Shown here in pieces: positions 6,535 to 57,211 of a DNA stretch of 64,000 nucleotides; within the stretch, counting starts at the first letter, position 1, and each line of letters begins with the position of its first letter. The notes under the pieces were generated by a model. The model worked only from the letters and a program-made list of their open reading frames with translations. It was not told the origin of the DNA and did not search any database. The stretch comes from Patescibacteria group bacterium. GTDB taxonomy: Bacteria; Patescibacteriota; Microgenomatia; UBA8517. The stretch covers positions 212,549-276,548 of the forward strand of contig DATDRP010000003.1 of NCBI GenBank assembly GCA_035291665.1. The letters run 5' to 3'. The position numbers were made by a program, and so were the translations under genes.

Positions 6535-6565
6535 GCGCCGTATTATATTATATATAAAGTGTTAT

Positions 6566-6678
6566 GACATCCTCCCCCGAGTCTGACTCGGGGGTTTCCC
6601 TAAGGAGGGGGACATATCTGAGTTCAATTCATCTACGTTCATGTAAACTTAACGTAGTTTTCTTGAAATCTGTTATAA
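6566..6678. repeat. structured intergenic repeat element (hairpin-repeat family, full-length copy)
   Basis: Perfect palindrome CCCCCGAGTC-T-GACTCGGGGG at 6574-6594. Outer pairing catcctcc...ggaggggga. Second hairpin ctacgtt...aacgtag. Conserved tail ttcttgaaatctgttataa. Related copies at 11443-11492, 33060-33265, 42173-42290 and 5221-5266. Confidence 0.7.
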
Positions 6679-6689
6679 TTTTGCCAAAC

Positions 6690-6989
6690 ATGCAAGAGCA
6701 AAAGATAATTGGATTAGACAATTCAGTTCTCGAAGAAATTATTAGGGGCGGAGGCGGATTTGCACGGCAAGCATTAGAAGAACTTTCGGGAAGGGCAATG
6801 GGTGGAAACCCCGATGCACGAAGCCTAGTTATGAAAATAGACAACGAAGTAAGTTCAGGTCATTTAACATTACCGACCGAAGAGGTAAAACCTGAAAACA
6901 ATACTATAAGTTTGAAAGATCGACTCAAAAGTGCATTTAACCGGCAGGGTAAATTACAGCATTTTCTACCTCCAGATAGAGATCCCTGA
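6690..6989 (+). CDS. hypothetical protein
   Basis: ORF trimmed to the internal ATG at 6690, because the upstream part of the track ORF is the repeat element. Confidence 0.35.
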   Translation: MQEQKIIGLDNSVLEEIIRGGGGFARQALEELSGRAMGGNPDARSLVMKIDNEVSSGHLTLPTEEVKPENNTISLKDRLKSAFNRQGKLQHFLPPDRDP

Positions 6990-7058
6990 AAAGCCCTTGA
7001 TTTTTGTACGTAAAAGTAGTTCGAAAAATCCTATTAACGCGATATAGTAAAATAACGT

Positions 7059-7982
7059 ATGACGCAGACGGTTCTTGACGTTGAAAATTTCCTAAAAAAG
7101 CATACCGGTGTGGCAATTTCCGGTGTTACCCCCATCGGTAAAGGCGAATGGTCTTCTGCCTACTCATATCAACAAAATGGTTTTGGTAAAGTGATTCGTT
7201 TCAGCCGCTTCGAAGAAGATTACAAAAAGGATCGGTTTGCATCAGGCCTTTCCTCCCAAAAGCTTCCCATTCCCCCGATTGAAGAAATCGGTCAGGCTTT
7301 TAACAATTCCTTTGCCATTTCACCTCGGGTCGAAGGAAAAATGATCGACGAGCTTACTCCTTTCGAAATACAAAAAGTCATACCCGCATTTCTGGAGCTA
7401 CTTGACTCTCTTCGCTCGGCTGATGTTTCAAAAACAACAGGTTTCGGAAGTTGGGACGGAAACGGACAAGGTACAAAAAAATGCTGGAATGAATTCATCT
7501 TAGGTATTGCCTCTGACAAACCCTCTAATCGAATTGCCGGATGGAAGGAAAAACTGGCCAAGAATAAAAATACCTACAAAATATATTCTTTGGCATATGA
7601 CCGGTTAACAAATCTTATTTCATACTGTCCAAACGAAAGGTATTTGGTTCACAACGATCTTCTTCATACAAATCTAATTGTGAATGACAATAAAATTGCT
7701 GCAGTAATTGACTGGGGCTGCGCTTTATACGGTGACTTCCTCTACGATCTGGCAATGTATACCTTATGGCAATTCTATTATCCATCCATGGCTAAAATTG
7801 ACTTTAAGAATAAAGCAAAAAATTACTTCAAGGACGCTGGAGCTGACCTTCGGAATTTTGATCAGCGTTTAAAGTGTTACGAATTGCACCTTGCCCTTGA
7901 TTCAATCGCCTATAACTCATTTAAAGAGAATAGGAAGAATGTGGATCTGACTATCGGTAGAATTAAAGAAATATTGGCATAG
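7059..7982 (+). CDS. aminoglycoside/choline-kinase-type phosphotransferase (APH family)
   Basis: Catalytic loop HNDLLHTNLIV (HxDxxxxN). Metal-binding IDWG...D segment. Size ~300 aa. Confidence 0.7.
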   Translation: MTQTVLDVENFLKKHTGVAISGVTPIGKGEWSSAYSYQQNGFGKVIRFSRFEEDYKKDRFASGLSSQKLPIPPIEEIGQAFNNSFAISPRVEGKMIDELTPFEIQKVIPAFLELLDSLRSADVSKTTGFGSWDGNGQGTKKCWNEFILGIASDKPSNRIAGWKEKLAKNKNTYKIYSLAYDRLTNLISYCPNERYLVHNDLLHTNLIVNDNKIAAVIDWGCALYGDFLYDLAMYTLWQFYYPSMAKIDFKNKAKNYFKDAGADLRNFDQRLKCYELHLALDSIAYNSFKENRKNVDLTIGRIKEILA

Positions 7983-8050
7983 AACTGTTATGTTCATATT
8001 TTATGGGTTAACCAAATGTTGCGTCGATTATAGTATTTAACATTGATGTT

Positions 8051-9004
8051 TTATTGATTTTCGGTATCTTTGCTTTTTACTATATTTGGATTTGGATATT
8101 TTACTTGCATTTTTGCATCCATTTCTTTAAACCCTGTAAGGTCAAAAATATGTGCTGGTCTTCCGTCAACTGAGAGGTAGTCTTTGGCAAAAAAACCCTG
8201 ATCAGATCGGCAATTTAATGGATGAGTATCTCGGTATTTTCTGGTGATGATCAAATCTCCACGATTTTTGACCCCTCTTGCCTGGTATTTAGTAAAAACA
8301 TTGTCAGGCATGGCCGCAAAATATGAGATATAGCCAATCTTTTTGACACCTTGCTCAATAATATCGGTCTGGATGGCAAGGTCAAAAGATTGATTGGCCA
8401 ATACCAAACCAATTAATTCTCCTGCTTTAACTTTGCCCTTATTCACATTAGGAGCTCTTTGAACATGCTGAAATTCGATAGAAATATTTGGATAAGCACT
8501 GGGGGCTACTCTTAGCTCCTGGTTATAAGAAACCCCCGAGTCATCAAAATCCAGAAAGCCGTCAACTGGTGTAAAAATTTTGACATCATTCTCCAGCGTG
8601 GGTGTAGGAAAATTTTCTATGCTCAACCCTTCATATTTATAGTTTGGCTGTTTATCATCATACGTACTGAAATAGTGCTTCATGCTCCGACATGTTTCCC
8701 CGCTTAGATAAGAATAATCATGACCCATCCCGGAACGGAATTTTGAGATACTATAAACTTTGTCGAGCTCTACAAAATCTGTCTGGATAAATTTTGAGGG
8801 ATTATCGGGGTCGATGGGTGGTTCTTCATCTACCGTTTTTTCAGCTTCTTGGAACTTTTCCTGTTTAAGTTGAGCAATATCTTTTACGATCCCTTTCAAG
8901 ACGAAAAGGAAAAAAATGAGGAGGGGAATCAGGATAACTATAAGTATCCACCTGTTATTTGGCTTCGATGGATTTTGTCTATTGGTAGTAGAAACATTCT
9001 TCAT
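8051..9004 (-). CDS. hypothetical membrane-anchored secreted protein (paralog family with 17248-18303 and 24763-25602)
   Basis: Start placed at the internal Met before the signal anchor (RWILIVILIPLLIFFLFVL). The track ORF extends to 9100. Confidence 0.4.
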   Translation of the reverse strand: MKNVSTTNRQNPSKPNNRWILIVILIPLLIFFLFVLKGIVKDIAQLKQEKFQEAEKTVDEEPPIDPDNPSKFIQTDFVELDKVYSISKFRSGMGHDYSYLSGETCRSMKHYFSTYDDKQPNYKYEGLSIENFPTPTLENDVKIFTPVDGFLDFDDSGVSYNQELRVAPSAYPNISIEFQHVQRAPNVNKGKVKAGELIGLVLANQSFDLAIQTDIIEQGVKKIGYISYFAAMPDNVFTKYQARGVKNRGDLIITRKYRDTHPLNCRSDQGFFAKDYLSVDGRPAHIFDLTGFKEMDAKMQVKYPNPNIVKSKDTENQ

Positions 9005-9189
9005 TAAATCAAGTATTACATACTCAGAAAGGTTGCTCAAACAATACACTCGAAGGGTGGTCAGACCCTGCCACTCTGGAAAATATGCAAAATTGAACAC
9101 ATATTTCGAGTACTATCAGGATCGCTTATTGCCCTACCCTTATGAATTTGAAAAACGAACGAGGAGGAAGGATTTATAACTATATAGGA

Positions 9190-9591
9190 TTATGTACGAT
9201 CAACATCCCCTGACAAAATTAGATTTCCGTAAGAAAAACCTTCGATTGTTGATGCGGTAGCGGCCACGAGCATTGACCATCTTTGGATTTCCGATTTTTC
9301 TGGAAATATAGTCCCCTTGGATTCCAGAATATTTTGTATTGTTGTGTCGGTTGGCGCATCAAAGTTCCATTTTTTTTCGCCTTCTTCCAGCCTGTCTACA
9401 ATCAGCTTCCTTAGTTCGGCATTTCCCAAGATATTTAGTAAAATTTCTCTGTTTTTTTCAACAGGTGAAATCCTGCTAAATTGTCTGTCTGCACAAACAA
9501 GGAGTTGTTTAAATCGTTTACCCCAATCTTTTCCATGCGATTCCGCCAAATGTTGAAGCTGTATCGGATGAGTTAAATTTTCCACGAGCAT
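9190..9591 (-). CDS. hypothetical protein
   Basis: 133-aa ORF. No family recognised. Confidence 0.35.
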   Translation of the reverse strand: MLVENLTHPIQLQHLAESHGKDWGKRFKQLLVCADRQFSRISPVEKNREILLNILGNAELRKLIVDRLEEGEKKWNFDAPTDTTIQNILESKGTIFPEKSEIQRWSMLVAATASTIEGFSYGNLILSGDVDRT

Positions 9592-9759
9592 ATTATATCA
9601 GGAGTTGAAGAATATTTTTATTGGCACAAGGATCGTAAGGTTAATATAACCACACAATTGACTTCAATTACCAATGCCTTTTCAGATTTTAGACTTGCGT
9701 TAGTCCTGAACGAAGTCGAAGGATGGCTCAAATCAGAGAAGATATTGAATAAGTATGAA

Positions 9760-10116
9760 TTATAACTGAGATGTTAGATTATAAATCGGAAATATGACGC
9801 TTATGACCATTAATCCAACTATTGTTCCGCTTAATAAGAAAGTCACAATGGCGGTGATTAAACTATAATTAAAATAAGCATCTTTATTTTGAGTGTTAGA
9901 AAAACCCTTAATACCAAAAAAGATGTTTACTGCCGAAATGGCAAGTAGAACAACTACACTTAAATAACTAGTACTTATATTTCCTGAAGTATTTGCACCA
10001 AATTCAGAGTATAACGGAGTTAATTTTGGAATAACAAAAAAAAAAGATAAAGCAAGTAGAAGAATCGGAAATCCAAAGAAAAAGTTGAGAATTCCAACTA
10101 ACTTATATTTAGTCAT
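9760..10116 (-). CDS. small integral membrane protein
   Basis: Three predicted TM helices. Confidence 0.4.
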   Translation of the reverse strand: MTKYKLVGILNFFFGFPILLLALSFFFVIPKLTPLYSEFGANTSGNISTSYLSVVVLLAISAVNIFFGIKGFSNTQNKDAYFNYSLITAIVTFLLSGTIVGLMVISVIFPIYNLTSQL

Positions 10117-10281
10117 AAAATATTAAATCAATAATAAAGCCTTGAATCTGCTTTTGGGTAAATTTAGTTCCAACTGACCCCCCGTTGACTTATTCAGTAA
10201 CCGAGAATTTGAGTTTGGATTTACTCCTTTTTCTATTGAACATTGCTGTTTCTGCATGGTTTTCTTTGGCGACAGACAAAA

Positions 10282-10593
10282 CTATTTCGATTTAGATTTT
10301 CTGCCGAGTATATGTTGCACCGAAGGGCTTATTGGTTTACCTTTACGATGAATACACCCGATCCAACAACAAGGACGTCGCATTCCTTCTTTAAGTTCCG
10401 AAACCACTCTACTTACATGGTCTTTTCTGGTTTCTTGTTTCTTGACAAAAATCGTCCAACAAATCCACTCATTTCTCGCAAGCGGTGTTAGATCCTCCCA
10501 CTCAGTAAGCGCTTTTGGGTCAGAAATTAAAGCTTCCCGTAAATCTGCTGGAACTTCATGCACTACACCAGTTGCGATTTTATTTTTAGTCAT
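10282..10593 (-). CDS. YdeI/OmpD-associated (OmdA) family protein
   Basis: LTPLARNEWICWTIFVKKQETRKDHVSRVV matches the OmdA signature (..NEWI.W....K.ETR..R..). Confidence 0.55.
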   Translation of the reverse strand: MTKNKIATGVVHEVPADLREALISDPKALTEWEDLTPLARNEWICWTIFVKKQETRKDHVSRVVSELKEGMRRPCCWIGCIHRKGKPISPSVQHILGRKSKSK

Positions 10594-10911
10594 ATTCTTA
10601 TTTTACCACTCCTTTTTCTTCTTTGGTTCCGCCTGCTAGAAAATACGAGAACCCGCCATGCTAGAATATAGGATGTATGAAGTTATCCAATAACAGCTAC
10701 ACAATTTTCTTAGGCACTAAGAATTTCACTGAGCGTTATTATAAAGACAAAAAAGGGTGGTTGAAGATTTCAGCACAAGGTAAAAAATTCCGGATGACTG
10801 CTGAGCAAGTGCTCAATCACCTGTTGCCAGCAGTTGCAGGTATTAAACCAAATCTAATACTAAAAGTAGAACATCGCGAAATGGTTAAAGAATAGAAATT
10901 TGGCAAATTGC

Positions 10912-11346
10912 TTAATCGCAGAAATTAGGCTTGAGAATTGTGTCAGGGAAACCGTATTGCTGACGTATTTTGGTGCAATCAACATTACCATTGCCATCCC
11001 AAACTACCTCCCAACCATTGCCTAAGATTGCCAACCACATACCGCCCTCACCCGGTCCACCTTGCCCAAACAAAACGCTACCCGAAGCAAATCCGGGTAT
11101 TTCCTTAACAACGGTTACTTTCACTTCAGATATTGGTTTTTGATATTTATTTGCCAAAAAGGCGGCAATCGCATGCTGGGTATCGGGATAAGGTGTGGGA
11201 GAAATAATTCCTTGGGCTACCGGGGTAGGTGTACCTGAAGGCAATGTAACCGGCATATTCGCAACCTTCTGTTTTGCAAAGAATAGATAATAGCCAAATC
11301 CTAAAACCGCAAGAACCACCAAAACAATCAAAGGTTTAAACTTCAT
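10912..11346 (-). CDS. secreted hypothetical protein
   Basis: N-terminal signal anchor (KPLIVLVVLAVLGFGYYLFF). Confidence 0.4.
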   Translation of the reverse strand: MKFKPLIVLVVLAVLGFGYYLFFAKQKVANMPVTLPSGTPTPVAQGIISPTPYPDTQHAIAAFLANKYQKPISEVKVTVVKEIPGFASGSVLFGQGGPGEGGMWLAILGNGWEVVWDGNGNVDCTKIRQQYGFPDTILKPNFCD

Positions 11347-11508
11347 TTGTATAGTGTATCAAATTTTTGGATACATTTAGTGCCAATAGGTTATAACACT
11401 GAGCTTATCGAAGTGCTCCCCCTGGTTGGCGTATTTAAGAATGACATCCTCCCCCGAGTCTGACTCGGTGGTATTCTTGAAATCTGTTATAAATGATAAA
11501 CTGAATCC

Positions 11509-11793: not shown

Positions 11794-12222
11794 TCAATTA
11801 TTAGGAGAATACTCAATGATCCATTCAATACCGTATTTATCTCGAAACATACCCGCATATGAGCCCCATGGACTGTCCCCGATAGATCCTTCTACTTCTC
11901 CTCCGGCTGAAAGACCATGAAATAATCTGTCCGCCTCTTCTTTACTTTCCGTGCTTACCAAAATCTTGTTTCTGTTTTCTTTCTCATTTACTCGTCCCAA
12001 AACTTCCGGGACATCATTGGCAATGAGCATTGTAGTGGTACCGATAGGTAACGCAATATACATTATTTTATCTTCCTCTTTTTCTGCTACTTGGAATTCA
12101 GCGCTGGCAATGTCTTTGAAACGTACCACTTTCGAGAATTCTCCACCGAATACCGATTTATAAAAAGTAAATGCCTCGAGAGCATTACCGTTGAAGTTAA
12201 TCCAAGGATTTAGTGTAGCCAT
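11794..12222 (-). CDS. VOC (glyoxalase/PhnB-like) family protein
   Basis: MATLNPWINFNGNALEAFTFYKSVFGG...MFRDKYGIEW is typical of PhnB/3-demethylubiquinone-9 methyltransferase-like VOC proteins. Start taken at the internal Met. Confidence 0.6.
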   Translation of the reverse strand: MATLNPWINFNGNALEAFTFYKSVFGGEFSKVVRFKDIASAEFQVAEKEEDKIMYIALPIGTTTMLIANDVPEVLGRVNEKENRNKILVSTESKEEADRLFHGLSAGGEVEGSIGDSPWGSYAGMFRDKYGIEWIIEYSPNN

Positions 12223-42039: not shown

Positions 42040-42040
42040 A

Positions 42041-42115
42041 ATGCGCAATCGAAAACCCTACCTCAACGCGAGTGCAACGAGCGGAGCGTCAAACGCACCA
42101 ACCGAGTTTGACTAT
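42041..42115. repeat. 75-bp direct repeat, copy 1 (copy 2 at 43026-43100)
   Basis: atgcgcaatcgaaaaccctacctcaacgcgagtgcaacgagcggagcgtcaaacgcaccaaccgagtttgact vs atgcgtaatcgaaaaacctgcctcaacgcgagtgcaacgaccagagcgtcaaacgcaccagccgagtttgactcgg. Confidence 0.8.
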
Positions 42116-42172
42116 ATAGTGTTTAGTTGAATTTATTGAAACTTATTATTAAACAATTTACTATTCTAATGG

Positions 42173-42290
42173 CATCCTCCCCCGAGTCAAACTCGGGGGT
42201 TTCCTCAAGAGGAGGATGACATATCAGAGTTCAATTCACCCTCAGATTGAAAGTCCGGGGTTCTCTTGAACGCTGTTATAGAATTTACTA
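42173..42290. repeat. hairpin-repeat family, full-length copy
   Basis: catcctcc-CCCCGAGTC-aaa-CTCGGGGG-tttcctcaagaggaggatg, acatatcagagttcaattca, hairpin ccctcagattgaaagtccgggg, ttctcttgaacgctgttata. Confidence 0.7.
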
Positions 42291-42905
42291 CTAACTCATC
42301 TTTACTTCTAATAAGGGTTTTCCGTTATCGTCTAGGACCTTTAATATTCCTGTTTGTGTATCCAAGCTGACATCCTTGCCTTCTCCACTACTAAATACTT
42401 TGACATTTTTTATCCCTTTCTTTTTCAAGTATTCAGCTATAGCTTTATTCCAACTTTCTCGATCTCCTTCCAATTCTTGCACGTATGGATCTAAACTGCT
42501 TGTGTCACCTAAGACATAAGGTAGGGCACTTTTGGATAGGTCTGGGACTGCTTCCAATAATTGATCTATAAGTTCTTCATGTCTGTTTCCCCATAAATCC
42601 ACAGCATTTATATGGATAACAGCTCCATTTTTACCAGCATTTTCATACATAGCGATAACTCTACAGGCACCACCCCATGCCTCTAATACAGGACCATCCC
42701 TACCTATAACAAAGGTATCTGCTTTTGCGTAAAGACGGCCATTTTCTCGACTGTGTCCTTCTTGCGTTTTGCCATCTTGTAGAAATGCGGACTCCCCCCT
42801 ATTACGGTTTATTCTCCTTACAGTTTTTTCCTCTGAGTGTGTTTCCATAAGTATTTTAGTTCTAACTTCCTCAATTGTGCGGTGAGGGAGGGTCTCCTTC
42901 GTCAA
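42291..42905 (-). CDS. hypothetical protein (cassette gene between 75-bp direct repeats)
   Basis: 204-aa ORF with a GC-richer, hydrophilic composition unlike its neighbours. No family recognised. Confidence 0.45.
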   Translation of the reverse strand: MTKETLPHRTIEEVRTKILMETHSEEKTVRRINRNRGESAFLQDGKTQEGHSRENGRLYAKADTFVIGRDGPVLEAWGGACRVIAMYENAGKNGAVIHINAVDLWGNRHEELIDQLLEAVPDLSKSALPYVLGDTSSLDPYVQELEGDRESWNKAIAEYLKKKGIKNVKVFSSGEGKDVSLDTQTGILKVLDDNGKPLLEVKMS

Positions 42906-42981
42906 GACTTCGAAGACTAAGGATTCTCAAGTTTTAGTATTCTAATCAAAGCAGCCTGCCGTCCCGTAGCATTGGCGTAGG

Positions 42982-43004
42982 GCGGTGAGGGAGGGATTCG
43001 AACG
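42982..43004 (-). other. partial duplicate of tRNA-Ser(GGA) 3' end (att-like)
   Basis: ggcggtgagggagggattcgaac is identical to the 3' end of the tRNA at 43102-43125. Confidence 0.7.
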
Positions 43005-43025
43005 CACAATTTGCAACACCTTACA

Positions 43026-43100
43026 ATGCGTAATCGAAAAACCTGCCTCAACGCGAGTGCAACGACCAGAGCGTCAAACGCACCAGCCGAGTTTGACTCG
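43026..43100. repeat. 75-bp direct repeat, copy 2
   Basis: See copy 1. Abuts the tRNA-Ser 3' end. Confidence 0.8.
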
Positions 43101-43101
43101 G

Positions 43102-43188
43102 CGGTGAGGGAGGGATTCGAACCCTCGATGGCGTTGCCGCCATACACGCTTTCCAAGCGAGCCGATTAAACCGCTCTCGCACCTCACC
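43102..43188 (-). tRNA. tRNA-Ser (anticodon GGA), class II with long variable arm
   Basis: Reverse complement: acceptor ggtgagg/cctcacc, anticodon loop uuGGAaa, variable stem atggcg-gcaa-cgccat, T arm gaggg-ttcgaat-ccctc. 87 nt. Confidence 0.7.
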
Positions 43189-43915: not shown

Positions 43916-44009
43916 ATGTGTATTATATCAGGTTTTGGAAAAATCGTATTTGTAAGAAGCTCAATTCATCACACACAACAAATCCTGGCTCGGAATCGAA
44001 AGAAGAGAG

Positions 44010-44094
44010 CGGAGGTGGTGAGATTCGAACTCACGAGACCCTTGCGAGTCGAGGTTTAGCAAACCTCTGCCATAGGCCACTAGGCGACACCTCC
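44010..44094 (-). tRNA. tRNA-Ser (anticodon GCT)
   Basis: Reverse complement: acceptor ggaggtg/cacctcc, anticodon stem gaggt/acctc with loop uuGCUaa, long variable arm, T arm gtgag-ttcgaat-ctcac. Confidence 0.75.
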
Positions 44095-44765: not shown

Positions 44766-44837
44766 GCCCCTGTAGCTCAACGGATAGAGCAGCAGTTTGC
44801 GGAACTGTAGATATCAGTTCAATTCTGATCAGGGGCA
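44766..44837 (+). tRNA. tRNA-Arg (anticodon read as GCG)
   Basis: Acceptor gcccctg/caggggc, D arm gctc-aacggata-gagc, anticodon stem gcagt/actgt with loop uuGCGga, T arm atcag-ttcaatt-ctgat. Confidence 0.7.
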
Positions 44838-44875
44838 CTTTATTAGAAATTAGTTATTAGTGTTAAGTTAAACAA

Positions 44876-44965
44876 GGAGGTGTGCCAGAGCGGACGATCG
44901 GGCTTGTTTCGAAAACAAGTATCTCATGTTTAATGGGATCAGAGGTTCGAATCCTCTCACCTCCG
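44876..44965 (+). tRNA. tRNA-Ser (anticodon CGA)
   Basis: Acceptor ggaggtg/cacctcc, anticodon stem cttgt/acaag with loop uuCGAaa, long variable arm, T arm agagg-ttcgaat-cctct. Confidence 0.75.
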
Positions 44966-45024
44966 CTCTCTTCGCTCACTTCGGTGTAAGGGTTCGATAT
45001 TGCGAATCAAGGATTAAAACTGTG

Positions 45025-45047
45025 CAAGGCGAATCTTCTCACATCCG
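45025..45047 (+). repeat. degenerate copy of tRNA-Ser(CGA) 3' end (second copy at 46181-46204)
   Basis: aaggcgaatcttctcacatccg and aaggcgaatcttctcacctccgcc vs the tRNA 3' end ttcgaatcctctcacctccg. Confidence 0.65.
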
Positions 45048-45281
45048 CAGATTGGAACAATTCTCGGGTTTTAAGAGTATGTCATACGACTGTTGAGTGA
45101 AGCTCCAAACAAGCTTTTTGTCCTTAACCATCACGCTCTAACCGACTTTTTCAACCGCTTTGCGTTTTGATATTAAATCACCACTTAAAATCAATTCCCG
45201 AGCTTGGAAAGCCGTAGTTATAAAATCTTCGGCTAGTTCCAACCAATAACGTTGAACATAACCCGTCATCAGTTTTTGAGC

Positions 45282-46133
45282 CTACCTTAAACCCTCTACG
45301 AAGCGTCTATCACCATAATATCGTGCATATGTGGCAAGGCAAAGCCTCGCATAGTCAAAATATGAGGTTTGCCTTTGGAAACCCGTTGGATAGCCATTAG
45401 CTCTTACAAGGTTCATTCCGGCAGCCCAAGCGTTTCTTTCATGAAATAAGTGAATTGTTTTGTCTACTCCATGACTTCGTGCTTCTAGACGAGTGAGTGC
45501 ATATCTTGTTGCTTCAAAAGGTGGTTGTTGTTCCCGAATACCGTACGGGAGTGCGTGGGCTAATTCGTTACCATAGGTTTGCACCATTGCAACAGGTGGT
45601 AAATCCCTTCCCTTTAGTGATATGGCGGCTTTAAGTAATCGCGTATCAAGGTCGTTGTGGAATATCAATACATGACCTAACTCATGATAAGTGGCGGACA
45701 TTCTAGTCATGTTTTCCTTTAACTCATCTACTTGTAGGCCAATGACGTAAAATGGATACTCTCTTCCACTCATGAGCGGGTCATGCGCATAAAACCCGTT
45801 TGTTGTACCAGTAAATAAAACCGGTTTTCCCTTTGAAGTTGTAAGTGATAAGTTAGATTTTCTAATATTACCTTTTTTCCTAACTTGTTCTAATTTTCCC
45901 GTATAAACCTGAATATGGCTAGACATGCCAAATCGTTCGGGCATGTTATACGTTCCAACTTGAGAAAAGGTAAGCCTTGCGTTTGGCCAGACAATTTGTG
46001 CCGGGAGCGGTATATGAGCAGCTTGGTCAATATCAATTTCCGTAAAGCTACTTTCAATCCCACCTTCAATTCGTGCCTCTTGTGGACGGGGTCTTTCATA
46101 ACCACTAGTACCGCTCTCAATTCCCATAATCAC
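45282..46133 (-). CDS. putative HExxH zinc metallopeptidase (cassette gene)
   Basis: YHELGHVLIFHND motif. Bounded by the two tRNA-3'-end-like repeats. Confidence 0.5.
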   Translation of the reverse strand: MIMGIESGTSGYERPRPQEARIEGGIESSFTEIDIDQAAHIPLPAQIVWPNARLTFSQVGTYNMPERFGMSSHIQVYTGKLEQVRKKGNIRKSNLSLTTSKGKPVLFTGTTNGFYAHDPLMSGREYPFYVIGLQVDELKENMTRMSATYHELGHVLIFHNDLDTRLLKAAISLKGRDLPPVAMVQTYGNELAHALPYGIREQQPPFEATRYALTRLEARSHGVDKTIHLFHERNAWAAGMNLVRANGYPTGFQRQTSYFDYARLCLATYARYYGDRRFVEGLR

Positions 46134-46180
46134 ATATTATACTATAAGCTATAATTAAATTAAATGATTTTATGCTTTGT

Positions 46181-46204
46181 AAGGCGAATCTTCTCACCTC
46201 CGCC
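46181..46204 (+). repeat. degenerate copy of tRNA-Ser(CGA) 3' end, distal
   Basis: aaggcgaatcttctcacctccgcc, followed by the GACTCAGACTCGG palindrome-like motif. Confidence 0.65.
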
Positions 46205-46254
46205 GACTCAGACTCGGCTGGGACATTTGAAGTTTTTGTTCAGAGTGGCACAAT

Positions 46255-46935
46255 TTACGCAGCAACGGTCAATCCCCAAACTGTTTTAATACCATTTTCT
46301 TTCAGAACTTTAGCGCATTCTGAAATTGTTGAACCGGTTGTCAGGACATCATCAAATATAATTACAGGTTTTTTGTCATTCGCAAGTTTTTTGTATTTCA
46401 TATTGAATCCAAATGCACCCTTAATGTTGTGAACGCGTTCTTTCCCTTTTAATTCCGCCTGATGCTTGCCTGCCTTTTTACGAAGCAGTACATCCGGAAG
46501 CAGTTTCCATCCGAATTCCAAACTAATCGCTTTGCAAAGCTCGAGGGACTGATTATAGCCTCTCCAGTTATACCGGGAGCGGTTAAGAGGTACAACTGTA
46601 ATGTATGCTTTCTGACCCCGAAAAAGTTTCGTTCGAAGAATTGCTAGGCAATATTTCTTTCCCAACTCTTGCGAAACTTCTCTTACAAAATTATATTTCA
46701 GCCTGAGGAGTGCACTTCTTACAGCCCCATCATAACTCCAGGGGGAATAGGCAAACTCGGGAGAATGATTTGTTATGCACTTTGCATGTGTTAACCCATC
46801 AATTGATTTTTTCTTACATCTGAGGCAAAAAAGCTTTGCGGGTGGAACTTTTGACAAACATCGTGCACATAAATAATTACCTTTTATACCGCATTCAAGG
46901 CAGTTCGTAGGAAAAAGTATATCAAACACACCCAT
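46255..46935 (-). CDS. comF: ComF family protein (phosphoribosyltransferase-type, competence)
   Basis: N-terminal double CxxC zinc finger. C-terminal PRTase motif VIIFDDVLTTGSTI. Confidence 0.75.
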   Translation of the reverse strand: MGVFDILFPTNCLECGIKGNYLCARCLSKVPPAKLFCLRCKKKSIDGLTHAKCITNHSPEFAYSPWSYDGAVRSALLRLKYNFVREVSQELGKKYCLAILRTKLFRGQKAYITVVPLNRSRYNWRGYNQSLELCKAISLEFGWKLLPDVLLRKKAGKHQAELKGKERVHNIKGAFGFNMKYKKLANDKKPVIIFDDVLTTGSTISECAKVLKENGIKTVWGLTVAA

Positions 46936-47576: not shown

Positions 47577-47974
47577 GGGGACGACCGGTTTCGACGGGAA
47601 AGCACCTTAAAAAACTGCAAGCCGAGTTTAATTCACACTCGCTAATAATGGATTAACAAATAAACGCTGATAACGAAAGTTACAGTCCAGAAGCAATAGC
47701 TTCAACTTTGCTCGGTACTAACCAAGCCAATTGGGCATTTGCTTAAACACTGGTGTCGTTTGAAAGGTTCTCAATCGTTTCAAAACGGCATAAACCTATT
47801 GAGATAAGCCAACAGCCGTTGACTGCAAGCTGTAGGTCGAAAAATATTCAGTCTTACTTGAAAGAAGGTCGTTAGTAATCTAACTTTCAAGAAAATATAA
47901 AAATACTAACTAAGCTTGTAAGAAAAGTTTTTTATTTACTTTTTCGGACGAGGGTTCGATTCCCTCCGTCTCCA
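47577..47974 (+). ncRNA. ssrA: tmRNA (ssrA)
   Basis: 5' GGGGACGACCGGTTTCGACGGG. 3' GGACGAGGGTTCGATTCCCTCCGTCTCCA paired with the 5' end. Internal tag ORF ...ANWAFA-stop. Confidence 0.9.
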
Positions 47975-47983
47975 CATATAAAA

Positions 47984-48012
47984 ATCCAGGTATTGCTACC
48001 TGGATTTTTTTA
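47984..48012 (+). terminator. rho-independent terminator of ssrA
   Basis: ATCCAGGTA-ttgc-TACCTGGAT followed by T7. Confidence 0.75.
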
Positions 48013-48128
48013 TGCTGAAAACCAAAGGAGGGATGAGAATTTATTCGCTCACTAGATTTGCGGCTTTGAAATCTTTAGATGAAAAATAAAGCAAACCTAG
48101 TGATATGAAATTTGTCTGAATTTCATAT

Positions 48129-48146
48129 TCCCTCCGTCTCCACCAA
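48129..48146 (+). repeat. duplicate of tmRNA 3' end (ttccctccgtctccacca)
   Basis: 18-nt identity with 47960-47976. This copy carries a full CCA. Confidence 0.7.
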
Positions 48147-48239
48147 GTCGAACTTGGTTTCGCCGAGTCAAAGCGAAAGCAAGGTTGACGCAGGTAGTCG
48201 AGTTTGACTCGACACCTTCTTTTTGTATATATTTTGTTC

Positions 48240-48524
48240 ATGAACAAAACGTCAGACGTTTTGTTAAAATTCTACGTTTATACACTTCTCTCACTAAAGG
48301 ATAAAAAATTTTATACTGGTTACACTACCGACTTGAAAATTCGGCTTACTCAACATTCAAAAGGTTTGGTCAAGTCCACAAAGTTAAGAAGGCCTTTCAA
48401 ACTAATTCATTACGAATATTTTATAAACGAGGAAGATGCAATGTCCCGAGAGCGCTTTCTAAAAAGTGGTTTTGGAAGAAAACAATTAAAAAACGCATTA
48501 AAGAGAACTTTGAGAAATATTTAA
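48240..48524 (+). CDS. GIY-YIG nuclease family protein (UPF0213-like)
   Basis: FYVYTLLSLKDKKFYTGYTTDLKIRLTQH matches the GIY-YIG motif. Start taken at the internal Met. Confidence 0.65.
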   Translation: MNKTSDVLLKFYVYTLLSLKDKKFYTGYTTDLKIRLTQHSKGLVKSTKLRRPFKLIHYEYFINEEDAMSRERFLKSGFGRKQLKNALKRTLRNI

Positions 48525-55148: not shown

Positions 55149-56588
55149 ATGAAAGCGATTGTAAAAAATCTTCTATTTTTAGCTTTGACAATATTTTTTT
55201 TTATCGCTTCGGATGAACTTACAATTGCGCAGGAATACGGGACTTACAGTTGTACCTATATTCCGACAAGTCCTTCCTGTTCCGGCAACCCAGCCAGTTG
55301 TACAACCTATGGCTGCCGATTCCCAACGGATGACAGTACGGCTGGTTGCGGCCAATTTAACGGCGATGCCGTGCAGTGTTCTTCATCCACTTTCGCCTGC
55401 GACTTCTGTCCGATTATGACTCATTCCCCGATGCAAATAAGTGATTGTTCCCAGGGAGTAAGGTTTCAGGCATTGCTTCTTAATGACACCATGTCCTATA
55501 CCATTAGGCTTTACAATCTTGGCAACGGCCGTTTATACGATGTACCCCAAGCGTCAATTGTGTCTCAATCTTCATATGACCAAACTTTATATTTTGATGT
55601 AACCGATATTAATGACGAAAACCTTGTGCTTTGTAATAATTCTCAAACCAGTGCAAGAATCCCGTCGGGTTTCTACCAAGTTAGGTTGTATACACAGGGG
55701 ACTTCTTATTACCGCGTCAGTAATGCCGGAAGTCTTTACTTTGTCCAACCTGTAATCACACCCCAACCCGGGACCTGTTCCTGTAACCAAAACGGTACAG
55801 CGTGTACGGTAAATTCAAGCCCCACCTGCAACTCAGGCTACTTACCCTCCTGCTTCTATGGGGGAACATTTTGCGGATGTAATTGTGTTACCCCCACTCC
55901 GGGGGGATCAGGGCTTCCCTGTCCTGTAACAACGCCCGGCATCCAATGCTGCGCTTCTTCATCCGCCTGTTCCTCTCCCGCCGGTACGGTGTTAACTCAG
56001 TATTCATGTGCGACCGGTGTCTGCTGCCAGGGTGCATGTACGGCAGTTGCTCCGACTGTCGCCATTCCTCCCGAATTCGCCGCATGCGATACGACCTGTT
56101 CAGCAAATCCGGAACCATACACGATAGGAAATTGTTCCCGAACCGGAGGTAATCCGGACACTTCAAAATGCCAGCGTCCGGTTTCAAATCCGGGATATGA
56201 CTGTAATATCAACGGGGTAACCTATGACTGCTTTTGCTGTTCGGAGCTTCTTTCGTCATCTACTGCAGCACTCACCCCAAGACCATCTCTTCCTGCCACT
56301 TGTGCTAACAACGGAATAGATACTGCAATCGGATGTTTGCCTGTGGGGAACCGCCAGCTATTCTTGCAATTTATTCTTCGCTGGGCACTGGGAATCTCGG
56401 GTGGAACTGCTCTTGTCATGATTGCCTATTCCGGAATTTTAATCATGACAGCACAGGGCGATAAGCAAAGACTTCAAACCGGCAAGGAATTTTTGACAGC
56501 ATCGGTGGCAGGCATAATGATGATTATTTTTTCGGCGTATTTATTGCAGCTTATCGGTGTAACCATATTCCGGCTGCCAGGAATATAA
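55149..56588 (+). CDS. large Cys-rich secreted protein with C-terminal TrbC/VirB2-type pilin domain (paralog)
   Basis: Same architecture. C-terminal 85 aa nearly collinear with the previous gene (…ILRWALGISGGTALVMIAYSGILIMTAQGDKQR…RLPGI). Confidence 0.6.
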   Translation: MKAIVKNLLFLALTIFFFIASDELTIAQEYGTYSCTYIPTSPSCSGNPASCTTYGCRFPTDDSTAGCGQFNGDAVQCSSSTFACDFCPIMTHSPMQISDCSQGVRFQALLLNDTMSYTIRLYNLGNGRLYDVPQASIVSQSSYDQTLYFDVTDINDENLVLCNNSQTSARIPSGFYQVRLYTQGTSYYRVSNAGSLYFVQPVITPQPGTCSCNQNGTACTVNSSPTCNSGYLPSCFYGGTFCGCNCVTPTPGGSGLPCPVTTPGIQCCASSSACSSPAGTVLTQYSCATGVCCQGACTAVAPTVAIPPEFAACDTTCSANPEPYTIGNCSRTGGNPDTSKCQRPVSNPGYDCNINGVTYDCFCCSELLSSSTAALTPRPSLPATCANNGIDTAIGCLPVGNRQLFLQFILRWALGISGGTALVMIAYSGILIMTAQGDKQRLQTGKEFLTASVAGIMMIIFSAYLLQLIGVTIFRLPGI

Positions 56589-56632
56589 GTAAGCCGTTTA
56601 TATCCTGCCATAAAAAATATAGAATAATAACA

Positions 56633-57211
56633 ATGAAGAAAAGTCTATTTACACTCTTACTCATCGCCTTCGTGGGTTACTTCATGATCCTTAAACCTGA
56701 TATTGCCAGCGCTCAGGGGTACGGTACCTGCACCTGGAACGGTCCGGAATTCGGCGGCTACTGTCAAGTGGGCTCGGTAAATTGCGATCCTAACTGTTTC
56801 GCACCGGCAAGTGCATGCGTCGGAATCCAGTTCAGTTCCTGTCCCGGCGCAACATTCGTCTGCGGCAACTGCTTTGTCCCACCAACAAGCGCACCGCCGC
56901 CTCCCAGCAACCTGGACTTTAATAGCTTGTATAGCGCAATTGGTTTTCGATTCGGCGGTTCAACGGTTGGCAACATTATCAGTGTTGCCAACACATATCT
57001 CTTTCCGATTGCTGGCTTAATACTTCTTTTATATCTGATATACGGAGGGTTAAATTTAATGCTGTCTGGCGGAGATCCGAAAAAAGCGGCTGCAGCAAAA
57101 TCAATTATCTCAACTGCAATTATGGGAATAATTATTATCTTTGCAGCTTACTGGATTGTTCAGTTGGTTGGAAGAATACTTGGTCTTACACAAATTTCAC
57201 TTACTTTTTAA
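56633..57211 (+). CDS. Cys-containing TrbC/VirB2-type pilin-like protein
   Basis: Signal peptide, 12 Cys in a short N-domain, then TM1-GGLNLMLSGGDPKKAAAAKS-TM2. Confidence 0.6.
   Translation: MKKSLFTLLLIAFVGYFMILKPDIASAQGYGTCTWNGPEFGGYCQVGSVNCDPNCFAPASACVGIQFSSCPGATFVCGNCFVPPTSAPPPPSNLDFNSLYSAIGFRFGGSTVGNIISVANTYLFPIAGLILLLYLIYGGLNLMLSGGDPKKAAAAKSIISTAIMGIIIIFAAYWIVQLVGRILGLTQISLTF

Follow-up and report, generated by a model that had tools for sequence, protein, structure and literature searches.

The window analysed here is a stretch of 64,000 nucleotides (nt) from a Patescibacteria group bacterium of the Microgenomatia (GenBank assembly GCA_035291665.1, contig DATDRP010000003.1, positions 212,549 to 276,548), and the locus in question is the interval between its tRNA-Ser(CGA) gene and a comF-family gene. 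Six RNA genes were called by ARAGORN in the window, five of them clustered, and Rfam agrees with the calls. Downstream of the intact tRNA-Ser(CGA) its 3' end is found twice more, as copies 2 and 3 (Table 1), and these two copies enclose a gene for an orphan protein with an HExxH motif. The insert between the tRNA gene and copy 3 is about 1.2 kb long, with one real open reading frame (ORF) inside. Loci for comparison were found by SmpB and ComF searches of genomes and metagenomes, which yielded distant relatives only; they are referred to by number (L014, L024 and so on).

Repeats of the tRNA-Ser(CGA) 3' end and their flanks

The sequence GGCGAATCTTCTCACMTCCGC is found exactly at 45028-45048 and 46183-46203, and with three mismatches at the 3' end of tRNA-Ser(CGA) itself (44946-44966). 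No match was obtained in 100 shuffles, compared with the three observed, and the distal copy was recovered with the last 30 nt of tRNA-Ser(CGA) at z = 8.8 relative to shuffled downstream sequence. The copies that a first-pass annotation, made from the letters alone, had placed at about 45025 and 46181 are thus confirmed, and they align better than random A/T-rich sequence does. The repeats are real and resemble attachment (att) sites: they are direct repeats of the 3' segment of a tRNA, one of them lying inside the intact gene. Their identity to the tRNA begins at CGAATC in the T-loop, with C56 as the common left boundary, and ends at the discriminator base plus one C. Their att-like character, also proposed earlier, is borne out by this span from T-loop to tRNA 3' end and by the lack of the insert in the syntenic loci L014 and L017.

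Over the last 19 nt the copies are 89-95% identical to tRNA-Ser(CGA). Copies 2 and 3 are nearer to each other than to the tRNA (88% over 32 nt, 45020-45051 against 46175-46206); they have a 2-nt deletion in the T-loop in common, as well as the non-tRNA motif CTKTGYAAGG upstream of the core. Local alignment of 44967-45027 and 46100-46182 with eight tRNA-Ser bodies gave no similarity (z -1.4 to 2.0). The copies are therefore 3' fragments and not decayed genes, and full-length tRNA pseudogenes are ruled out.

The short segment S' between the tRNA and copy 2 aligns with longer modules that follow tRNA-Ser(GGA) in the window and tRNA-Ser(CGA) in L024. In all three modules the motif TTCGAT is found 37-39 nt before the core. 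A third tRNA fragment that had been noted near 44993 (GGGTTCGATATTGCGAATC) is better read as this conserved module motif than as a tRNA copy. The sequence TYCGCTCACT occurs in the window at 44971 and 48047 and, among 27 fetched loci, only in L024; all occurrences follow the end of a tRNA or a transfer-messenger RNA (tmRNA) at a distance of no more than about 100 nt.

Copy 3 is followed by CC-G, which is the arrangement of a native tRNA end, and then by a trailer block (block A) extending to the comF stop codon. The stretch 46204-46254, behind copy 3, significantly resembles the 74 nt directly 3' of tRNA-Ser(GGA), designated A1 (43025-43098; z 6.6), and block A is also similar to A2 (42040-42113; z 4.6), which is 92% identical to A1. 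Both A1 and A2 match the block that follows tRNA-Ser(CGA) in L024 (z 6.6-7.3), and block A can be aligned with it too. Block A starts with the hairpin CCGAG-TCAAA-CTCGG-CTGG, which overlaps the CC after the discriminator base, and a second hairpin comes next; in a four-sequence alignment, 4 of 13 stem pairs have compensatory changes. The hairpin-family motif that the first-pass annotation saw after the distal copy is present as GCCGACTCAGACTCGGC at 46202-46218, and the family has eight matches at six sites of the window against 0.1 expected. The module and the hairpin did not match any known RNA family in Rfam.

The trailer of the present tRNA-Ser(CGA), CTCTCTTCGCTCAC, is unlike block A. The layout of CC-G plus block A found after copy 3 is that of the intact tRNA-Ser(GGA) in the window and of tRNA-Ser(CGA) in L024, and by this likeness the distal copy has the appearance of the native tRNA end moved away from its gene, which is the pattern of a classical integrase-type insertion. 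Block A is homologous to trailers of intact tRNA-Ser genes, and it is equally possible that it was the trailer of a lost tRNA-Ser(UGA). The A2 block begins inside the hairpin loop, and the tRNA-end copy in L024 ends inside the same loop.

Table 1. Features of the tRNA-Ser(CGA) locus and of related loci in the window (positions within the 64,000-nt window)
Feature	Position	Strand	Remarks
tRNA-Ser(GGA) locus	42040-43188	-	A1 43025-43098; 3'-end copies 42981-43010 and 42878-42907; A2 42040-42113
185-aa ORF in tRNA-Ser(GGA) locus	42291-42848		no family
tRNA-Ser(GGA)	43100-43188	-	ARAGORN, Rfam
tRNA-Ser(GCT)	44009-44094	-	ARAGORN, Rfam
tRNA-Arg(GCG)	44766-44838	+	ARAGORN, Rfam
tRNA-Ser(CGA), intact	44876-44966	+	ARAGORN; Rfam RF00005, 45.4 bits
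Repeat copy 1	44948-44966	+	last 19 nt of tRNA-Ser(CGA), CGAATCCTCTCACCTCCGC; repeat family D3
Module remnant S'	44967-45019	+	short non-coding segment from tRNA-Ser(CGA) to copy 2, 53 nt
TTCGCTCACT in S'	44971-44980
TTCGAT in S'	44993-44998
Repeat copy 2	45020-45051	+	motif CTGTGCAAGG, then core CGAATCTTCTCACATCCGC (45030-45048)
Non-coding stretch 3' of HExxH gene	45052-45281
Orphan HExxH protein gene	45282-46127	-	281 aa from ATG; ORF extends to GTG at 46133
-10-like box CTTATAGTATAAT	46136-46148	-	conserved; 8 nt before ATG of HExxH gene
Repeat copy 3	46175-46206	+	motif CTTTGTAAGG, core CGAATCTTCTCACCTCCGC (46185-46203), then CC-G
Trailer block A	46202-46254	+	hairpin GCCGACTCAGACTCGGC (46202-46218), CTGG, weaker second stem-loop region
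comF-family gene	46255-46935	-	conserved flank; Pfam DZR_2/PRTase; synteny
tmRNA	47577-47975	+	ARAGORN, Rfam
tmRNA locus	47577-48157	+	exact 17-nt 3'-end repeat 47959-47975 and 48127-48143; hairpin CCAAGTCGAACTTGG 48143-48157

The HExxH gene and its homologues

The ORF at 45282-46133 on the minus strand is the sole real ORF between copies 2 and 3, and the ATG at 46127, which agrees with the start of the homologues, is the probable start of the gene. In the non-coding stretch 3' of the gene there is a 43-amino-acid (aa) ORF (45138-45269, minus strand) with no detectable relatives in the fetched loci. A single minus-strand gene bracketed by the copies and encoding HELGH had been described in the first-pass annotation, and the motif, H150-E151-x-G153-H154, is invariant in 31 homologues. 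The other invariant positions of the alignment are F230, E232, R233, N234 and A235; together with the nearly invariant H231 and W236 they make up a second motif, FHERNAW, which is acidic and lies approximately 78 residues further on. This spacing is similar to that of HExxH...E peptidases such as M48, and the invariant E232 is a candidate for the downstream third ligand of a zincin.

A search of 5.8 billion proteins gave 34 relatives, the named ones being from metagenome-assembled genomes (MAGs) of Levybacteria and Parcubacteria, and an exhaustive profile search gave 61 representative clusters among 1.84 billion. Judged by these searches the protein belongs to a rare orphan family that is restricted to the Candidate Phyla Radiation (CPR). 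Neither the protein nor its profile nor its remote relatives matched Pfam, PHROGs, NCBIfam or PDB sequences, with the exception of a sub-threshold match to Peptidase_M78 in one remote relative (P0128, E = 0.015). AlphaFold2 modelled the protein with confidence (pLDDT 92), and a model of the helical half bearing both motifs reached pLDDT 94, with HExGH on a long predicted helix. Foldseek searches of PDB and BFVD, made with the full model and with the catalytic half, gave no match. The protein is like the zincins, with ImmA/IrrE (Peptidase_M78) as the nearest hint, in its invariant HExGH and its invariant second motif, and unlike them in having no match to a family profile or a known structure. 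The earlier label of metallopeptidase is a guess from the motif; a metal-dependent hydrolase is plausible, while no peptidase-family profile matched above threshold. With its rarity, metal-site-like motifs, confidently predicted fold and lack of a detectable solved or viral structural relative, the family may be regarded as a candidate new metallohydrolase family.

A -10-like box of the TATAAT type lies 5-10 nt upstream of the ATG in nine homologue loci. It is exactly TATAAT in eight of them and TACAAT in L007, and the longer form CTTATAGTATAAT is found in five. No complete -35/-10 pair was called upstream of the window gene by a simple promoter scan. Apparently the gene carries its promoter along with it, and its transcript would have little or no leader. 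Upstream conservation stops near 46164, and the left edge of copy 3 follows approximately 10 nt further on. A foreign composition of the gene was considered and rejected (GC z = 0.84). A phage origin was likewise rejected: viral contigs contained no homologue of the protein, and the att, arm and hairpin sequences had no viral match save one chance match within a coding sequence.

In ten loci from other genomes the neighbours of the HExxH gene differ every time, which speaks for a mobile gene, and no conserved partner gene was found downstream of the homologues. A tRNA gene lies within 1.3 kb of the gene in about half of these loci, namely tRNA-Lys in L004, L009 and L012 and tRNA-Thr in L007; these tRNA genes have no 3'-end copies. 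Neither flanking direct repeats nor tRNA-end copies were found in the seven homologue loci examined, so the repeats belong to the site and not to the gene, and a trait of the gene family is ruled out as their origin.

The homologues in L004 (4999-6843), L012 (4946-6492) and L009 (5719-6849) lie just 3' of tRNA-Lys(UUU), and in L004 and L012 small GIY-YIG genes are placed between the tRNA and the homologue. The homologue in L012 is split in two ORFs and is probably a pseudogene. A 280-aa ORF at 8773-9615 of the same locus was considered as a second copy of the gene and found to be unrelated. In L026 (640-740) the sequence CCGACTCAGACT is found upstream of a 76%-identical homologue; it is a 12-nt exact match to the distal hairpin of the window, reversed in orientation relative to the gene, and adjoins the perfect hairpin TTTCAGACTAGAAGTCTGAAA.

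Copies at other RNA genes and in syntenic loci

Downstream copies of 3' ends were searched for at 50 tRNA and tmRNA genes of the window and the comparison loci, a sample biased towards tRNA-Ser clusters. Six of 20 tRNA-Ser genes (two in the window, three in L015 and one in L024) and one tmRNA have them; no copy was found at the remaining tRNAs, about 22 in number. No such copies are present in L014 and L017, and the trait is patchy even among the nearest relatives.

The tRNA 3' end in the first-pass annotation was taken as the third in the window with an att-like duplication and a one-gene cargo. This holds in part. At tRNA-Ser(GGA) there are copies of the 3' end with an ORF beyond them, but the exact repeat at the tmRNA encloses only 151 nt, within which TTCGCTCACT is found, and the small GIY-YIG gene of that locus (approximately 48240-48524) lies outside, just beyond the distal copy. 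The 74-nt direct repeat formed by A1 and A2 encloses the two tRNA-end copies, the 185-aa ORF and one copy of a dispersed 117-nt repeat described below. The distal tmRNA copy keeps the CCA and has a 22-nt match to the native tmRNA end of L015, and the proximal tmRNA end is followed by an intrinsic terminator like that of L024.

In L015 the tRNA-Ser genes with anticodons UGA (9494-9647), GCT (10715-10913) and CGA (11857-12033) are followed by exact copies of their own 3' ends. The copies are in tandem units of about 50-65 nt, each consisting of a 3' end and a spacer of 35-45 nt, and the Ser(CGA) array runs off the contig end.

The order of genes in L014 (SmpB 61% identical) is tRNA-Ser(GGA), a NUDIX-sized ORF, tRNA-Ser(GCT), a DUF5673-like ORF, tRNA-Arg, tRNA-Ser(CGA), comF, smpB and tmRNA. 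In both L014 and L017, the latter a Woesebacteria MAG, the order of tRNA cluster, comF, smpB and tmRNA is kept and the HExxH gene is absent. A near-identical tRNA-Ser(UGA) with the same 3' end lies 20 nt after tRNA-Ser(CGA) in L014, and a tRNA-Ser(UGA) converges on the 3' end of comF in L014 (6654-6738), L017 (7299-7381) and L015 (9556-9647), to be compared with 44967-46254 in the window. No tRNA-Ser(UGA) was found in the window, and its position next to comF holds copy 3 instead. Since UCA is the commonest serine codon in the window (24%), the gene must lie elsewhere in the genome.

The closest match to tRNA-Ser(CGA) of the window is that of L024 (ComF 54%). There the gene is followed by a 124-nt module, a copy of the 3' end, a 95-aa ORF of no known family and comF. 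The junction of this copy, TTTTGCACGG followed by CGAATC, equals that of copies 2 and 3, upstream motif included. L024 therefore has the tRNA-module-copy structure of the window with a different cargo. The HExxH gene occupies a variable slot between tRNA-Ser(CGA) and comF. A metagenome contig (L021, 1-783) has a comF 98% identical to that of the window and diverges abruptly about 40 codons before the gene end; a strain-level rearrangement or an assembly chimera is possible, and the contig is uninformative on the junction.

Origin of the arrangement

The arrangement is read here, with a slight leaning in favour, as what erosion has left of one or more site-specific insertions, whose target would be the part of a tRNA-Ser gene from T-loop to 3' end. 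Incoming DNA would have recombined within CGAATC...CCGC and brought a replacement 3' end, which would have kept tRNA-Ser(CGA) intact. The native 3' end would have been pushed 1.24 kb downstream along with its two-hairpin trailer (copy 3 and block A), to a place beside comF. Block A after copy 3 and a different trailer at the present tRNA end are what classical integration predicts. Copy 2 and the preceding 53-nt remnant would mark a second, mostly deleted unit, and the resulting locus would run as tRNA, mini-module, copy 2, cargo, copy 3 and native trailer. The cargo would be the single gene with its own -10 box, encoding a rare CPR-specific HExxH protein that is probably a metal-dependent hydrolase; being intact, the gene is presumably retained by selection. 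The recombinase and all else would have been lost, leaving an islet that may be fixed or at most mobilisable in trans. The repeats and their boundary in the T-loop, the homology of the trailers, the lack of the gene in L014 and L017 and the lack of a recombinase in the scanned ORFs are observed, and from these we infer a recombination mechanism and its polarity; the activity of the protein is likewise inferred. On balance we take the locus for a decayed islet that is possibly mobilisable in trans and has several counterparts at the tRNA-Ser and tmRNA genes here.

Sequences of viral origin bear on the use of this target. As a positive control, the exact 20-nt 3' end of tRNA-Ser(GGA) of the window was found in 42 IMG/VR contigs. 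About half of these matches are fragments outside any tRNA, often near the contig end, and their identity to the tRNA starts at the T-loop or a few bases before it. One contig, L048 (8.9 kb), has the 20-mer at either end; it contains a Zot-like gene and, adjacent to one of the ends, a tyrosine integrase. Together, L048 and the viral fragments indicate that elements carrying an integrase do use the tRNA-Ser segment from T-loop to 3' end as an attachment site. The viral contigs were also scanned for the att core, arm and hairpin of the locus, with nothing relevant found, and no related element bearing an integrase turned up. According to PMC9897764, fragments of tRNA genes are widespread as att relics.

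The tandem ssrA islands of Dehalococcoides are genomic islands at the T-loop sublocation of the tmRNA; 15 such islands, with accretion, are discussed in PMC3146451. The locus is similar to these islands and to L048 in having direct repeats that span an RNA gene from T-loop to 3' end, with the gene complete on one side and present as a 3' fragment on the opposite side, repeats in series downstream with a conserved non-tRNA motif upstream of each, and a cargo of strain-specific genes. It differs from them in that no integrase or other mobility gene was found in the islet by scanning its ORFs, in the size of the units (80 nt to 1.2 kb against 9-100 kb) and in the divergence of the repeats (88% identity). 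Mismatches in the att copies and the 2-nt deletion in the T-loop may have inactivated the sites. Cis-mobilisable elements (CIMEs), which are att-flanked remnants without recombination or transfer genes, are a second likeness: the islet has att-like flanks, no recombinase was found, and it adjoins another att-bounded unit, as in accretion. Unlike the case of CIMEs, no cognate integrase was found in the scanned ORFs. An integron gene cassette was considered and rejected, as the gene carries its own -10 box, the repeats are derived from a tRNA and no integrase was found.

The idea of an att-like duplication with a one-gene cargo, put forward in the first-pass annotation, is favoured by the att-like repeats, the native-looking distal trailer, the absence of the insert in L014 and L017 and the viral contigs with the same tRNA-Ser sublocation, and it is weakened by the lack of an integrase in the islet and in the scanned ORFs. 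Families of integrases, resolvases or transposases were absent from a Pfam scan of 40 other window ORFs, and no recombinase was found in a 4.9-kb segment between two hairpin repeats (6592-11440). The element is for this reason a relic or a non-autonomous element rather than an active island.

Several points weigh against an origin by insertion. No recombinase was found in the islet. The HExxH gene shows no compositional anomaly (GC z = 0.84), and its homologues elsewhere stand without flanking repeats. The nearest comparators are distant (SmpB 53-61%, ComF 54%), and no close relative with an empty site turned up. The agreement of each copy with its own tRNA is expected from a target-derived duplication and from a co-adapted phage attachment site (attP) alike. 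The exact tandem units of L015, found at three different tRNA-Ser genes, measure 50-65 nt, which is too little for independent circular elements, so secondary amplification or another mechanism is needed for them. The tRNA next to comF in L014, L015 and L017 is tRNA-Ser(UGA), which is missing here, and the displaced fragment may therefore not derive from tRNA-Ser(CGA).

The last point leads to an unlikely alternative, in which the copies are the remains of a former twin gene, a tRNA-Ser(UGA) placed in tandem behind tRNA-Ser(CGA). Foreign DNA would have replaced the 5' two-thirds of this twin, with a later duplication of the junction around the HExxH gene. The tandem in L014, with the same 3' end only 20 nt away, provides the model, the convergent tRNA-Ser(UGA) of three relatives stands where copy 3 is placed in the window, and the gene is missing from the window despite the frequency of UCA codons. 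However, nothing upstream of copies 2 and 3 resembles any of the eight tRNA-Ser bodies, and next to ends that are still 89-95% identical this implies grossly uneven decay. One relic gene cannot give two copies with the same T-loop breakpoint and the same upstream motif, and in L024 the trailer block follows tRNA-Ser(CGA) itself.

Still less probable, in our estimation, is that the tRNA-end copy and the two-hairpin module are a distinct small element or a functional motif, not scars left by an integrase, which may be specific to the tRNA-Ser and tmRNA genes of this CPR lineage. The element could be a non-autonomous cassette system whose insertion duplicates the target; the motif could be a structure acting in the transcript, where the copy competes with the true 3' end. 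The distribution of copies over tRNA genes (6/20 tRNA-Ser, 0/~22 others) fits this alternative, but loci were sampled by synteny with the tRNA-Ser cluster and the bias to serine is partly one of ascertainment. The match of every copy to its own tRNA, the exact tandem units at three tRNA-Ser genes of L015 and the constant spacing of 37-39 nt between TTCGAT and core are also in its favour. Both hairpins of block A keep their pairing between genomes, although the covariation (4/13 pairs) rests on four sequences, and the sequence around copy 3 shows no unusual degree of structure (z -0.1 and -0.8). The absence of copies in L014 and L017 suggests gain and loss and not a conserved function.

A related proposal, which we put forward as a speculation of low probability, is that Microgenomates-type CPR bacteria contain an undescribed family of miniature modules without a recombinase, which insert or amplify at tRNA-Ser and tmRNA genes and capture single genes bearing a promoter, the HExxH gene among them. 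Such modules may consist of the T-loop-to-3'-end core, the two-hairpin arm and the TTCGAT...CTKTGYAAGG arm, and may be driven by a host recombinase, by a still unknown one or by a mechanism that duplicates the target, rather than by a classical phage integrase. Chance likeness in A/T-rich sequence, which has only the shortness of the repeats in its favour, is excluded by the shuffles (0 matches in 100 against 3), the z of 8.8 for the distal copy and the like architecture at two other RNA genes of the window and in L015 and L024.

Under the favoured reading, that of a decayed insertion islet, the core finding is ordinary, since tRNA fragments left by integration are common and well understood. 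Less ordinary are the tiny modules specific to tRNA-Ser and the orphan protein. Relics are found at several tRNA-Ser and tmRNA loci within one 6-kb cluster, and the extremely reduced genomes of CPR bacteria may keep accessory genes by eroding elements down to att arms and one selected gene.

Elsewhere in the window a dispersed, structured repeat of about 117 nt is found on the plus strand at 6564-6680, 42166-42285 and 11441-11492. It starts with ATGRCATCCTCC, contains the hairpin CCCGAGTCWRACTCGGG and ends with TTCTTGAAMKCTGTTATARAAT; the copy at 11441 is internally deleted, with exact matches of 28 nt and 19 nt. The sequence CATCCTCC equals the acceptor 3' strand of the GGAGGATG-type tRNA-Ser of L014, L015 and L017. 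The repeat matches no Rfam family, and its RNA folds with z -3.3 to -4.8 on both strands. At 55149-57211, two adjacent ORFs have pilin domains of the type IV secretion system (T4SS), which suggests a cluster for type IV secretion or a conjugation-like process.

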